Source: an uncultured Planctomycetaceae bacterium
GTDB lineage: Bacteria; Planctomycetota; Planctomycetia; Isosphaerales; Isosphaeraceae
Assembly: GCA_963833985.1 (NCBI GenBank)
Contig: CAWIAD010000001.1
Location: 1,984,001-2,048,000, forward strand
Direction: 5' to 3'
Length of the DNA: 64,000 bases
The translations under genes and the position numbers were made by a program. This document shows positions 11,957 to 53,313 of this stretch, one piece after another (within the stretch, counting starts at the first letter, position 1; every line of letters starts with the position of its first letter). The notes under the pieces are model-generated. The model had not been told where the DNA came from. It saw only the letters and a list, made by a program, of their open reading frames with translations, and did not search any database.

Positions 11957-12096
11957 TGAGCAGATCCGCAGAAGTCTTTTGGCAGGATTGCAGTTCGCTT
12001 GCCCGGGGGCTGAGGGCCCTGCCTGACCGCTCTCCTTGTGGGGTACGATTCCAATCGTGCCATTCCTGGTCCATCAGATAGAAGAAGTGACACCAT
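11957..12096. repeat. Left half of a REP-containing, inverted-repeat-bounded element (family A) interrupted by the group II intron
   Basis: Aligns with 53054-53222; contains GTGGGGTACGATTCCAATCGTGCCA. Confidence 0.85.
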
Positions 12097-12260
12097 GTAG
12101 AGTCGAGGTGTGGCGCGGTGGGCTCGAGTCGATGGCTCGGCTGGGCCTCGTTTCCACACCCCGCTCATCAAACTGGACGGGCGGTTTTCCCGCATCCAGC
12201 TTTCGGACAAGGCTTGTCTCATCGGTTGAGTTCACACGTTCGCTCACGAAACCATCGCGG

Positions 12261-12860
12261 CTAGGTTCGTTGCAGCTGGTAAAGATGCAACTCCTGGTGC
12301 AGGTATCTGTCAGGGTAGCGTCTGAGCCCCTGACCCGGCACCTTGAACTTCGCACACAACCACTGACGTACCCGGTAGCGGACGTGGTGGTTGACTTGGC
12401 GATAGGCTGGGCTCACCGTTCCGATGCGAAAATAGTTGGACCAACCGCGTAACTTGCGATTGATCCGACCAATCTGCATCTCGACGTCCTGTCCAGTGGT
12501 CTGGCGCGTCGTCATCGCACTGATCTCGCTGCACAGCCGAATGATCTTCTTCCGCGATGGGCGTGACCCTATGTAGGATCGGCCCGTTCGTCGGTCGTAG
12601 TTCCGGCCGAGGGTATAACCCAGAAAGTCGAACGTCTCCTCAGGCAGGTGGCACAGCCGCGTCTTGGTCTCGTTCACCGTTAACTTCAGCCTGGACATCA
12701 TCTTCCGCATCACCGTCATGGCCTCTTCGGCCGTGCCGCGACAGCAGATGACGAAGTCGTCCGCATAGTTGACGATTCGCGCGACCAGACGCCGCTCGTG
12801 TCCACCAGTCTTCCATCCCTTCACAAATCGTCGCATGTAGATGTTGGACAACAATGGTGA
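12261..12860 (-). pseudogene. ltrA: Group II intron RT/maturase, C-terminal half (YADD and domain X; no En domain)
   Basis: SPLLSNIYM...IVNYADDFVI...FDFLGY...LRGWSNYF; separated from its N-half by the insertion. Confidence 0.92.
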
Positions 12861-14514
12861 GATCACGCCCCCAACAATGTTGCGAACTACGTTGTTGGGG
12901 GCCTTTCTCAAAAGGGGACGGACTGACCCGATACACGATGCGGACCTCCTGCTCGTCGATCTCGACCTTCTTCACCAAGGCCCGAACCACCTCCCGTCGC
13001 GTGGCCCAGTCCGGCTCTTGCAACCCTTGCGAGACGCGACGTGCGAACTCCTCCAACTGACCGATCACCAGTCGCAATTCCGCCTCTTGGGCGGCCTCGC
13101 CGATTCGTTGTCGATGCTCCTCCGCCAATCTCGAGAGGCGCGTCCTTGCCGCCGAGATCCGGGGCTCGAACTCCGATTTGTCGAGCAACCCGTCGCCGTA
13201 AGCATCGATTAATCGAGAAATCATCTTTTTCACATTATTTATCAATTTGCCGAGATGCTCCACCTCCTGATTCGGCCCGCCCTGGGCACCCTGCAGCCGC
13301 CGCTCGTACTCCTCCCGGACCCGCTCCGGCTCGGACAGGAGACCTCGTAAGTCCTCCCAGACGGCAGCGTCAAGGATATCGGTGCGGATCTGCTTGTTCC
13401 AGCAGAGGCGCTGCCCGCCGAAACGATAGGCGTCAGAGCCCGTGCAACGGTAGTACGCGTAGCGGACCCTACCCTTGCCCTCGAACGCGGCTCGGCTCGT
13501 CGGCTTGCCGTAGCAGCCGTAGCCGCAGCGCTTGCAGACGACCAGGCCCTGGAGCAGATATCGGCCACCGCCGGGCCGGTCGCGACGGCGTTGCCGGTTC
13601 TCTTCAAGCTGGGCCTGGACAGCCAGGAAGAGGTCTTCGCTCACCAGCCCGGGGACTTCAATGAAGATTTGATCTTCCGAGGATGTATCAACCCGTGAGA
13701 CCGGTCGCCGGGAGTGTTCGGGGCGGCCTCGCTGCGGGCGGAGGCGTTGAGGTTTGAACTCACCTGAGCGCGTCTTGCCGAAGGCCGCGGTCCCCTTGTA
13801 GGCAGGGTTCTTGAGGATCAACCAGACCGTCGCGCGATCCCAGGCCGATTTCCCGGTCCGCGTCGGGATACTGTCGCGCCGGAGGCGTCGGCACACCTCG
13901 CCGATCGAGCACCGTTCCTGACCCACCCATTCGAAGATCTTCCGCACGACCCGGGACTCTTCAGCGAGGACCTGATAACGCGCCTCGCCACCTCCCTCGT
14001 GCTTGCCGATGTAACGGTAGCCGTACGGCGCGCCGCTGAGGACGTTGACCGAACCGCGGCGGGCGGCGTGTTGCTTGCCCCTGCGGCAACGCTCCATGAT
14101 CTTGGCGCGCTCGTATTCCGCGATCATTCCCTGGACCTGAAGCAGCAGGTCGGCTTCCGGACTGCGGCCGACGGGGTTGCGCAAGAAGACGACCTCGACA
14201 CCGCACCGGATAAGTTCCTCAAGGATCAAGACCTGATAGGCATACTTGCGTGAAAGTCGATCCGGATCGAGCATATAGAGGCGGTCGATGGCTCCAGCGG
14301 CGGCTTGGTCCCGAAGTCGCTCGAGTGCCGGTCGGGCCAGGATGTAACCGCTGACGCCGTCGTCCACGAAGTGCAGTTCGGGCTCGCATTCCAAGCCATC
14401 AGTGGCGATCCGCTGAGTGACCGCCTCGAGCTGGCTGGCGATCGTGTCCTCCTTCTCCTGCTGCTCCCCCGAAACCCGGGCGTAGAGCGCCACGCGGAGA
14501 TTGTCCGTGATCAT
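12640..14514 (-). CDS. Large serine recombinase (resolvase, recombinase, Zn-ribbon and coiled-coil domains)
   Basis: ALYARVS (catalytic Ser15), DDGVSG, RPALERL, DRLSRK, AEYER, GAPYGY, ILKNPAYKG, LLQGLVVCKRCG...YYRC. The ORF runs past the element end into intron sequence. Confidence 0.95.
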   Translation of the reverse strand: MITDNLRVALYARVSGEQQEKEDTIASQLEAVTQRIATDGLECEPELHFVDDGVSGYILARPALERLRDQAAAGAIDRLYMLDPDRLSRKYAYQVLILEELIRCGVEVVFLRNPVGRSPEADLLLQVQGMIAEYERAKIMERCRRGKQHAARRGSVNVLSGAPYGYRYIGKHEGGGEARYQVLAEESRVVRKIFEWVGQERCSIGEVCRRLRRDSIPTRTGKSAWDRATVWLILKNPAYKGTAAFGKTRSGEFKPQRLRPQRGRPEHSRRPVSRVDTSSEDQIFIEVPGLVSEDLFLAVQAQLEENRQRRRDRPGGGRYLLQGLVVCKRCGYGCYGKPTSRAAFEGKGRVRYAYYRCTGSDAYRFGGQRLCWNKQIRTDILDAAVWEDLRGLLSEPERVREEYERRLQGAQGGPNQEVEHLGKLINNVKKMISRLIDAYGDGLLDKSEFEPRISAARTRLSRLAEEHRQRIGEAAQEAELRLVIGQLEEFARRVSQGLQEPDWATRREVVRALVKKVEIDEQEVRIVYRVSPSPFEKGPQQRSSQHCWGRDLTIVVQHLHATICEGMEDWWTRAASGRANRQLCGRLRHLLSRHGRRGHDGDAEDDVQAEVNGERDQDAAVPPA

Positions 14515-14879
14515 GGTTTGTCAAACCCCCCCGACCTTGGACTGGATAGTGTGGACCACAGTCGCGTGGTTGCGGCTGGGTCGCGGCCGATCCAGGCGCT
14601 GCGAAACGACCGGGATCAAGACCTGATATGCACGCGCGATCAATTGCTCCTGAAGCCGAGTGAACTCGAAGTGGCGGGTGACAGGAGGACTGAACGTGGG
14701 CCTCCGTGGGGACGTGATCATGTCGACTCCTCCTCTCCGAGAGCGCGGCCGCCAGCCTGCCTTGGATCGGGATCGAGTCGGGGCTGCCATCCGTGCCCGT
14801 ACTTCGGTCGAAGCCGCGATCTGGAAATGACAGAGTCAGGAATCAGGGACGATTTTGCAACATTGTTGGGGGCGTGATC
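12861..14879 (-). mobile_element. Minimal large-serine-recombinase element with 23-bp perfect terminal inverted repeats and GATC core
   Basis: GATCACGCCCCCAACAATGTTGC (12861-12883) and GCAACATTGTTGGGGGCGTGATC (14857-14879); removal rejoins the RT in frame. Confidence 0.93.
14521..14721 (-). CDS. Small basic protein upstream of the recombinase (candidate accessory/directionality factor)
   Basis: GGAGGAG RBS before ATG at 14721; 66 aa MITSPRRP...RAYQVLIPVV...; ends 6 nt before the recombinase start. Confidence 0.6.
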   Translation of the reverse strand: MITSPRRPTFSPPVTRHFEFTRLQEQLIARAYQVLIPVVSQRLDRPRPSRNHATVVHTIQSKVGGV

Positions 14880-15574
14880 GGTGCACCTTGCGGTGTACCC
14901 ATCCCCTGGTCTTTATTCCGGGTCGTTCGATGGCGCTGCCCCTTCCCGTCGGTTTCTTCCACCGGTGTTTCCAGCCACATCTTGATCAGCCGCAGGACGC
15001 GACCGTCGCTGATGCGCCGTGACGCCGATTTCATTAACTCGGAATGGGGTATGCTATCGAAATATCCAGATAAGTCCGCGTCCACCACCTCGGTGTGCCC
15101 CGTCTTGAGCAGCCGTTCGACTTCGCGGACGGCGTCCAGGGCGCTGCGCTCCGGGCGGTAGGCGTGTTGTTCCGGCTCCAGGTCGGCCTCGAAGATCGGC
15201 TCCAAGACCAGCACCGCAGCCATCTGCACCACACGATCCTTGATGCAAGGAATGCCCAGCGGCCTTTGCTTGCCGTCCCCTTTGGGGATGTACACGCGCC
15301 GCACCGCCTGGGGTTGATACGTCTCCTTACGAAGTTGTTCCGCCAGTTCGTCCAGCCATCGTTCCTTCCCGGACGCCTCGATGTCGGCGAAACTCTGGCC
15401 GTCGATCCCCGGCGCGCCGCCGTTGGCACGGCAGCGTTCGTAGGCGAATCCCAGAACGTCACGTCGATAAATCTTGTCGTACAGGACGTAGAACCGATAG
15501 TTGGGCGCGTTCTTCGCTTTGGTGTGCAACGCCGTCTGCAACTTCCCGACCTTCAGTGGAGGTGATAGACTCAC
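14876..15574 (-). pseudogene. ltrA: Group II intron RT/maturase, N-terminal half (RT0-RT4)
   Basis: RFYVLYDKI, ANGGAPGIDG, YIPKGDGKQRPLGIP, VVDADLSGYFDSIPH, GTPQGAPI then the element junction. Confidence 0.92.
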
Positions 15575-16105
15575 GCCAATCTCCCGGCTGTCTGCCGCTT
15601 GTTGCGTTGACCTTGAACCAAGGCCCCTTCCCTCGACCGGAGTTACCCGGCGTCGACGGTACTACGGGCCTCTCCGCCACCCCAGGCAGCCCGGCCGGTC
15701 CCTCGCGGGCGTCCGGTTGAGGGTCACGCGCCCTCACCGCTTGGGGTTTCCCGTGTTGTGTTGATCTCCGTGTGCCGACATGCCGTCGTCAATACCCCGG
15801 TGGCCCGCTGGGTTCTGATCGCTCGTGGGGCGGCCTATTCCAACCGTTTCCCTTTCATCCCCAGCGACGGCGGCCTTCCCCATATTCCAGCAAGGTCGGC
15901 GACCACATTGGACTTTTCGAGGCCTGCTCAACGTTCACTCGCGTTACGGCCTGTCGGTTCGCTGCATCGCCAAGCGACACATCTGTCTCGAAGGCTCCGA
16001 CGGTTTCGTCTCCTCCACCGCCGCTCCGATAGCTACCGGCTGGAGCGACCCAGTTGCCGGGTGGGAGTTACACCCACTGAAGACCAACACCTTTCCACGG
16101 CGCAC

Positions 16106-16238
16106 GGGAGTCGTGTCCCACGAGGTGATTGAATTGACACGATTGGGTATCGTGGCCCACAAGGAGCGGCCTGCCGGTCATCCAGGATCGCATCAACCTG
16201 CTGAATGCCTGTCAAAGAACGATTGCGAACCTGCTTAG
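16106..16238. repeat. Right half of the family A element interrupted by the intron
   Basis: Aligns with 53223-53313 (GAGCGGCCT.CCGGTCATCCAGGATCGCATCAACCT...GATTGCGAACCTG); carries two reverse REP units. Confidence 0.85.
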
Positions 16239-52904: not shown

Positions 52905-53048
52905 AGCGGTTTTCTGACGCGTTGCGGGCAGTTTCTGTGTTTCGGAAAGGGGGGCAGACATTCCTGTCTGCCAGGACAGGCCTGCTCCGGCAGGCAGGAA
53001 TGCCTGCCCCCCGGTCTCAGTCTGCGATCCGAGTGAAAACCGCTCGAA
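52901..53048. repeat. MITE-like element starting at the gltD stop, containing a REP doublet (52949-53012)
   Basis: CTAGAGCGGTTTTC ... GAAAACCGCTC inverted ends; internal GGGGCAGACATTCCTGTCTGCC / GGCAGGCAGGAATGCCTGCCCC. Confidence 0.75.
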
Positions 53049-53053
53049 ACCAG

Positions 53054-53313
53054 GCAGGTCCGCGGAAGTCCTTGGACAGGATTGCCGTTCGCTTGCCCGG
53101 GGCTGAGAGCCCTGCCTGGCCGCTCTCCTGGCGGGGTACGATTCCCATCGTGCCATTCGATTCTCGTGGGGTACGATTCCGATCGTGCCATTCCTGGTCC
53201 ATCAGATAGAAAAAGTGACGCGAATGGTATCGTGTCCCACGAAGAGCGGCCTCCCGGTCATCCAGGATCGCATCAACCTTATGAATGCCTGTCAAATAAT
53301 GATTGCGAACCTG
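53054..53313. repeat. Uninterrupted copy of the family A element (inverted ends plus three REP units)
   Basis: Colinear with 11960-12096 joined to 16106-16233; ends CAGGTCCGC...GACAGG / CCTGTC...GCGAACCTG. Confidence 0.88.

Follow-up and report, generated by a model that had tools for sequence, protein, structure and literature searches.

Reviews of bacterial group II introns, in the text that was available, give three target habits, namely homing sites, terminators and attC sites, and a link between IIB introns and attC has been proposed in the literature. The closest precedent for the case described here is, among the partly available sources, RmInt2 of Sinorhizobium meliloti GR4, a class D intron without endonuclease (En-less) present in seven copies, which homes by its exon-binding sites (EBS) 1, 2 and 3 into the inverted repeats of ISRm17, with four EBS2 pairs (PMC4615759). 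For class F, Table S2 lists an IS4 transposase gene as the site of Ni.ha.I1 and a "putative non-coding sequence" as that of D.a.I1, without a REP or TIR target (PMC3552965); EBS2 of class E/F introns is described, in the portions consulted, as dispensable for splicing in vitro, its role in homing being left open (PMC3552965, PMC3753933). Among dispersed repeats, REPtrons combine GTAG/GTGG repetitive extragenic palindromes (REPs) with RAYT, and TIRtrons combine GGGGWSAS terminal inverted repeats (TIRs) with TIRYT, both around tyrosine transposases (PMC3733652, PMC6006769, available in part). The present analysis concerns a group II intron that interrupts a REP in a 64,000-nt stretch of an uncultured Planctomycetaceae bacterium (assembly GCA_963833985.1, contig CAWIAD010000001.1, positions 1,984,001 to 2,048,000; this whole stretch is called the window). 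Judged from sequence comparison, it is a class F (g3)-like, En-less intron whose three EBSs fit a single subtype of a REP restricted to the genus; it likely retrohomes into that subtype by base pairing and not by recognition of hairpin shape.

On the minus strand, the intron occupies 12097-16105 (4,009 nt), with a 5' end GTGCG at 16105, a 3' end CTCTAC at 12097, and Rfam matches to RF02003 at 15939-16079 (domain I) and RF00029 at 12122-12204 (domain V). Its flanks, when joined, read TGACACCAT|GGGAGTCGTGTCCCAC, a 25-nt unit without target duplication, and an uninterrupted counterpart of this unit is found, colinear, at 53216-53240 within an empty sister element (53054-53313, plus strand). The joined flanks (273 nt) align with that element at 78.5% identity over 265 nt (E 1e-58). 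A preliminary description of the window had claimed both the colinear 25-nt unit and the match of about 260 bp around it; both claims hold, the length of the unit being right and the printed string containing one C too many. Read on the intron strand, the target consists of a GTGG foot, the arm GACACGAC, the loop TCCC, the break and the arm ATGGTGTC. Insertion had been placed in the REP loop, which has 4 nt; the break falls on its 3' edge and not in its middle. The split REP comprises a 5' part (5' exon with the GTGG foot, 16106-16121, minus strand), which holds intron-binding site (IBS) 1, ACTCCC, at 16106-16111 and the IBS2 core GGAC at 16115-16118, and a 3' part (3' exon, 12087-12096, minus strand) with IBS3 = A at 12096.

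Copies of the intron were then collected in the own genome (G000; 10.16 Mb in two contigs, C1 and C2). There are 13 of them: 11 complete, one apparently split across both contig starts, and one old and internally deleted. The assembly breaks at the intron repeat, since C1:1 and C2:1 both start within an intron copy. In 12 of the 13 copies the REP is broken at the identical base, and the remaining one (C2:1011493) is also in this composite repeat, in the arm that forms no hairpin; as REP insertion points represent about 1 in 100,000 genome positions, insertion into REPs is not a matter of chance. The introns are 99.9% alike, yet their flanks diverge immediately, with differing REP sequences, differing element types and one differing position. 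The search for further copies and their exon junctions, suggested in the preliminary description, thereby bears out its view of an En-less intron homing to a multicopy REP family. Its term "safe harbour" applies in so far as a crude gene call places each of the 12 copies whose two flanks share a contig in intergenic DNA, this location being the sole basis for it.

Guide sites were assigned by covariation, using a domain I alignment of 51 distinct sequences out of 74 candidate 5' ends and a set of 53 non-redundant intron/site rows (four of them from the own genome; tandem sites were dropped and eight motif-less candidates skipped). The loop at 15884-15889 (UGGAAU, minus strand) varies together with the last six bases of the 5' exon and is the EBS1 that had been proposed; EBS2 (AGUCCA, core GUCC; 15909-15914) and EBS3 (U at 15792), on the same strand, were assigned likewise. 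Over the 53 rows, mean EBS1 pairing was 5.02 of 6 versus 1.93 after shuffling (top of 2,000 shuffles 2.64) and mean EBS2 pairing 3.74 versus 2.74 (highest 3.21), in shuffles that ignore relatedness though the rows are kin; EBS3 gave 24 pairs and 1 wobble among 30. Complementarity takes the form UGGAAU-ATTCCR for EBS1, GUCC-GGAC for EBS2 and U-A for EBS3. At the 13 own-genome sites, IBS1 pairs at 6/6 positions in six, at five plus a wobble in four, at 4/6 in two and at two plus a wobble in the deleted copy; the GGAC of IBS2 is present in all 13; the IBS3 base is A in eight, G in two and T in three. The best combined match to IBS1 and IBS2 is that of the lone non-hairpin site. The window copy, with ACTCCC, forms 4/6 EBS1 pairs, which agrees with the imperfect fit noted in the preliminary description. 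The same description had matched EBS1 to the neighbouring REP, an empty unit of the GTGGGGTAC subtype (12038-12063, plus strand): IBS1 is indeed present there, on the other strand and in a subtype without IBS2, for which occupancy is 0 of 64. A second UGGAAU (15837-15842, minus strand) was considered as EBS1 or as a captured REP and rejected, being near-constant in close relatives with differing targets. Whole-domain folding was uninformative (z 0.19).

The target repeat has the attributes by which GTAG/GTGG REPs are defined (a GT[AG]G foot, a 7-20-bp stem, a 2-5-nt loop, many extragenic copies and inverted doublets), and its units form inverted doublets as well as arrays or clusters. It was found in 9 of 13 congeners and in none of 47 other genomes searched. 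An initial census on C1 with a loose regular expression (174 real versus 41 shuffled matches) was replaced because of its high background. In the census retained, a comparison of occupied and empty units that the preliminary description had called for, REP units bearing GGAC are occupied in 12 of 64 cases and all others in 0 of 118 (p 2e-6); in other terms, the 170 empty units divide into 52 with and 118 without GGAC, and all 12 occupied units carry it. When only REPs with a perfect IBS1 are considered, the contrast is 9/32 with GGAC versus 0/86 without. Hairpin energy does not differ between occupied and empty REPs (-5.3 vs -5.2 kcal/mol, p 0.96), and the idea that weaker hairpins favour insertion was rejected on these equal energies. 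Because occupied units all carry GGAC and hairpin strength is equal, targeting is likely by sequence and not by the type of hairpin reading known from class C (IIC) introns; the analogy with hairpin-reading introns drawn in the preliminary description is not sustained, all the more as EBS2 covaries with the exon. Copy positions, copy number, complementarity and the exclusion of REPs without GGAC are direct observations.

Relatives were gathered by a reverse transcriptase (RT) search that returned 75 loci, more being added from further searches. The close relatives form a clade set of 44 distinct sites, occupied by introns 80-95% alike in domain I. GG[AT]C stands at the same register in 34 of these sites, and GGGGWSAS within one mismatch in 31 (chance about 0.3% per position), in combination with 23 different EBS1 sequences; EBS2 shows compensatory change within the clade (GUC:GAC 18, GAC:GTC 14). 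The target patterns of relatives are multicopy (1-17, 4-97 and 1-51 repeats in five genomes per pattern, versus 0-2 for controls). For GAAGGACA-type repeats the test was clear in genome G088 (35 vs 1) and weak in G122 (8 vs 4), and a GGGGTC-type target gave only a single match in one genome. Three target-repeat families flank Y1 transposase genes, with Y1 between repeats at loci L131, L132 and L238 and at L083/L085 of the own genome; a Y1 hit falls within the flanks of 9 of the 75 relative loci, and 13 regions fetched on a guess contained a whole Y1 open reading frame (ORF) in three cases, a broken one in one and none in nine. Most target flanks of relatives are, by eye, without a local hairpin of the kind seen here. 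The preliminary description had made its proposal depend on whether related introns lie in unrelated, non-REP sequence, and the outcome is graded: close relatives keep the register but occupy repeats of other families, and 0 of 12 more distant introns have the GGGGWSAS motif at this register. Three distant introns (L018, L019, L097) are inserted in TIR-like repeats at another register or strand, as read by eye.

If targeting is by base pairing, the intron ribonucleoprotein would enter the REP strand by reverse splicing, probably at the replication fork, where that strand is single-stranded DNA (ssDNA), and the nascent strand would serve as primer by analogy with RmInt1/RmInt2. The RT protein probably reads additional bases outside the EBS pairing (G at -15/-14 and T at +2), distal-exon contacts being suggested by RmInt1/RmInt2. 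We infer that the lineage holds EBS2 on a GG[AT]C core common to TIR and REP repeats linked to tyrosine transposases, and that EBS1 changes to suit the repeat family of each host, which would provide many intergenic landing sites. Several observations count against this account, besides the kinship of the covariation rows. Three occupied REPs have a poor IBS1, so EBS pairing alone is an insufficient explanation. Relaxed, ACTCCC-grade matches are occupied at 2 of 22 REP sites and at 0 of 537 intergenic non-REP sites (p 0.0015), and further determinants (protein contacts or structure) are therefore likely, at the expense of a pure EBS model. Under a strict pairing rule, the difference between REP sites (9/31 occupied) and intergenic non-REP sites (1/14) is not significant (p 0.14), so that survival bias is inseparable from targeting. 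Occupied and unoccupied REP subtypes are oriented oppositely in the composite element, which is a possible confounder, and GC skew and gene-strand skew showed no clear origin and were uninformative on a leading/lagging bias. None of the seven Pfam Y1 hits of the own genome is flanked by the window REP, i.e. no cognate RAYT was found among them, and the RAYT-like ORF that this REP flanks in genome G009 scores 57.8, under the NCBIfam cut-off of 80.

The weak IBS1 of the three REPs, together with the REP preference of ACTCCC-grade matches, which points to some factor outside the EBS core in favour of REPs, would suit an intron that reads the hairpin as a structure, as IIC introns do at terminators and attC, with base pairing of minor importance. 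This is very unlikely: EBS2 covaries, hairpins that are equally good and lack GGAC are never occupied, occupied hairpins are no different in energy from empty ones, one copy and most sites of relatives are without such a hairpin, and IBS1, IBS2 and IBS3 lie partly within the stem, which would need melting. An alternative of a different kind is that any site matching the EBSs can receive the intron, REP occupancy then reflecting the abundance of matches and the loss of in-gene insertions without evolved specialisation. The non-significant strict comparison is in line with it, as is the finding that, of the 35 strict-rule sites outside REPs that are empty, 22 fall within predicted genes; it is nevertheless unlikely as the whole account, leaving unexplained why EBS1 and EBS2 fit a repeat at all and why 23 EBS1s of the clade land at one register of repeats. 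It is compatible with targeting by pairing, and both can act together. That the intron inserted once and was then carried along as the repeat element multiplied, through Y1 transposase or recombination, would accord with the many copies in the same composite element and with incongruent variant patterns, and is hardly tenable, being largely refuted by near-identical introns whose flanks differ at once. A bolder version of the favoured explanation, which we regard as rather doubtful, would make this class F lineage a standing specialist on repeats made by HUH/Y1 enzymes, with EBS2 locked, EBS1 a swappable six-letter guide, a jump from TIRs to GTGG REPs, an RT using Y1-made ssDNA or a 3' end, and an RT-targeting recombinase that rides in the intron RNA and makes most copies non-autonomous.

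This recombinase is the cargo of the window copy, whose RT gene is broken after residue 233, within the PQGAPI|SP motif, by a large-serine-recombinase (LSR) element that the preliminary description had overlooked; the intron measures 1,994 nt without it. All parts lie on the minus strand: the 5' part of the RT/maturase gene at 14876-15574 (residues 1-233, with the PQGAPI motif at its end), the element at 12861-14879 (2,019 bp including GATC at both ends, with 26-nt inverted repeats at 12861-12886 and 14854-14879) and the 3' part of the gene at 12261-12860 (residues 234-432, with YADD and the maturase domain and no En). The LSR ORF (12640-14514; PF00239, PF07508, PF13408) extends into the flank, there being no stop codon inside the element, and an 89-aa ORF lies upstream of it within the element (14521-14790). 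Resolvase, recombinase and zinc-ribbon domains, defined ends and both filled and empty sites identify the element as such. Among the 13 intron copies it is forward in seven, inverted in two, absent from two and represented by one end of unreadable orientation in one, and the internally deleted copy has the remnant of another recombinase (75% identical). Variant 1245C is found in 7/7 forward-element copies and 0/4 others, and one short-read contig agrees with the 1245C forward-copy junction with zero differences. The public sequencing data consulted (four of 20 listed runs, among which the best share was 0.36) gave short contigs throughout; none of them crossed the locus, and neither a splice joint nor an excision joint appeared, which counts neither for nor against the model. 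The recombinase is present in 23 of 121 family genomes; by manual reading of the locus listing, it lies at the same RT motif in 21 of 28 non-own loci (forward in 8 and reverse in 9, with rearranged flanks in 3 and an unclear orientation in 1), in host RTs about 25% to 83% identical to that of the window, and elsewhere in the remaining seven, four of which are distant homologues.

The simplest reading is likely a single entry of the LSR element into the RT gene, after which the 4-kb composite would have kept retrohoming in trans, with RT supplied by the two element-free copies; seven copies probably arose in this way, together with the element. Other variants among the intron copies are incongruent, which tells against it and leaves the genealogy of the copies unclear. 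A rival reading, rather unlikely, has the intron spreading first and its copies each acquiring the element afterwards. In its favour, the element family is specific for the RT motif (the 21 loci above) and mobile in the own genome (two solo copies, two inverted), and position 1245, which lies 15 nt from the crossover, might by itself influence the orientation. Against separate entry, relatives carry the two orientations about equally, yet the element is forward in all seven 1245C copies, with a chance probability of about 1 in 64, and no 1245C copy is empty. The two solo copies outside introns (C1:1741773-1743789 and C2:5865419-5867434, the latter frameshifted) are at sites only partly like the RT motif. 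In six relatives (L041, L044, L048, L066, L071, L081) the RT is split at residue 172/173 by a second insertion of at least about 2.4 kb with a distant LSR (26-28% identical), and in three loci (L144, L165, L168) both LSR flanks are the same RT half, suggesting recombination between two elements. The older, deleted intron variant of the own genome (L004, C2:4627313-4628477; 87-96% identical) has the same EBS1, EBS2 and REP register, and its LSR remnant differs from the window LSR but occupies the same RT motif. At C2:2147534-2148833 (L242), an ISAs1 transposase element (NF033564) sits in the 3' part of an intron copy with inverted LSR, giving four nested layers; two more copies are on C1.

The assignment to group II follows from the GUGYG...AY ends, the catalytic triad of domain V and the tertiary pairs of domain I. 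On the minus strand, domain VI with the 3' end covers 12097-12169, domain V 12170-12204 (AGC triad, 5-nt loop), alpha (GUCGCU) 16044-16049 and alpha' (AGCGAU), its inferred partner, 15818-15823. Domain IV encodes the RT/maturase (TIGR04416, 360 bits on an element-free copy, cut-off 300), which is split in the window copy and intact, with 432 aa, in the two element-free genome copies. No endonuclease family was matched in the RT (Pfam on the two pieces of the window copy, NCBIfam on an intact copy), as the preliminary description had stated. The RT is 51.6% identical to that of Ni.ha.I1 (listed as g3, class F), versus 30-37% to g1, g2, D and unclassified references. In the RT phylogeny, which the same description had recommended, it belongs to a mostly Planctomycete clade (support 100) within the group that holds the g3 references, with SH-aLRT values of 93 for the clade with Ni.ha.I1 and 97 with an A. 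caldus g3 fragment; this was a quick tree of 51 rows without a class E reference. The 5-nt domain V loop and an alpha' at the end of a stem-loop (position taken from the alignment) fit class E/F RNA. Class E, the first guess, was dropped after the identity to Ni.ha.I1 and the tree, and is unlikely given the placement of the RT with g3 references. The attributes of class C (no EBS2, a short IBS1, insertion after a hairpin) were not found. In three relatives (L050, L051, L052) the RT gene is interrupted at residue 268 by a second RT that groups with the class D reference, likely a twintron, and five (L039, L053, L054, L183, L206) are head-to-tail tandem introns, a 3' end abutting the next 5' end.

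The composite repeat element interrupted by the intron spans 11959-16238 (plus strand; about 270 bp when empty) and contains inverted REP units. Its ends, 11959-11972 and 16224-16238, are imperfect TIRs resembling those of miniature inverted-repeat transposable elements. A further REP unit, of the GTGGGCCAC subtype, lies empty at 16135-16160 (minus strand). The intron is antisense to both neighbouring genes, which encode a flavoprotein (PF02441, 11170-11838, plus strand) and a porin of the O/P family (PF07396, 16345-18291, plus strand). Beside the empty sister element, 52951-53015 is a different repeat, of the GGGGGGCAGACATTCCTG type, which resembles the flanks of a Y1 gene at C1:1082096. Most of the seven Y1 hits of the own genome (L082-L088) are flanked by repeat families of their own, several of GTAG type; one such repeat is of TIR type and is targeted by the intron of a relative, and none is used by the window intron.

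Small elements moved by a large serine recombinase with a 2-bp crossover core are known as the Tn4451/TnpX and Tn5397/TndX types. The LSR element is like them in these respects, and unlike them in its length of about 2 kb, its symmetric ends, its occurrence in both orientations and its specificity for the PQG motif of intron RTs. No paper on an RT-targeting recombinase element was found, nor one describing introns that home to REPs or to the TIRs of TIRtrons, in a search whose coverage excluded most subscription journals, and figures and supplements of the two REP papers may list these TIRs. The accessible parts of the Minerva preprint and of a 2010 meeting report contain no intron-REP link, and the word "intron" is absent from the main text of PMC3733652. 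Retrohoming in trans is known for ORF-less introns, according to the text available; the present case suggests that a 2-kb cargo can follow this route, a point relevant to multicopy delivery into the intergenic repeats of Planctomycetes.

The following comparisons are made with the available parts of the cited papers. Like the class F/g3 introns Ni.ha.I1 and D.a.I1, the window intron has an RT-X of about 430 aa, a length of about 2.0 kb, a 5-nt domain V loop and alpha' in a terminal loop (PMC3552965, PMC3753933), and the census of 12/64 versus 0/118 constitutes natural evidence on the role of EBS2 in class E/F introns. With IIC introns it shares insertion at palindromic intergenic motifs; in these, the upstream hairpin replaces IBS2 and IBS1 is 3-4 bp, whereas here EBS1 has 6 nt, EBS2 covaries and insertion is inside the hairpin (PMC4424553, PMC7923331). 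Insertion at a fixed point of a REP is likewise a property of the insertion sequences IS1397, ISKpn1, IS621, ISPa11 and ISPpu9/10, which use DNA transposases, unlike this RNA-guided retroelement, and two of nine P. putida group II introns are tabulated as REP-associated (PMC1525189). With REPtrons and TIRtrons the target shares its GTGG foot, short hairpin and inverted doublets, and targets of relatives fit GGGGWSAS and in part flank Y1 genes; unlike REPtrons, the own genome yielded no cognate RAYT. The homing proposed here is one whose site is a host repeat family, a clade retuning EBS1 and keeping EBS2 on a shared repeat core. RmInt2 already offers a precedent for its mechanism, the pairing of EBSs with inverted repeats, and the surprise is limited to that extent: both introns are En-less and multicopy, and RmInt2 homes through EBS1, EBS2 and EBS3, with no more than four pairs at EBS2, as is likely for the intron described here. 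RmInt2 is nevertheless a class D intron at the end of a full insertion sequence in one strain, and the intron described here is class F/g3-like, has a REP as target and belongs to a whole clade addressing one repeat core with many EBS1s.

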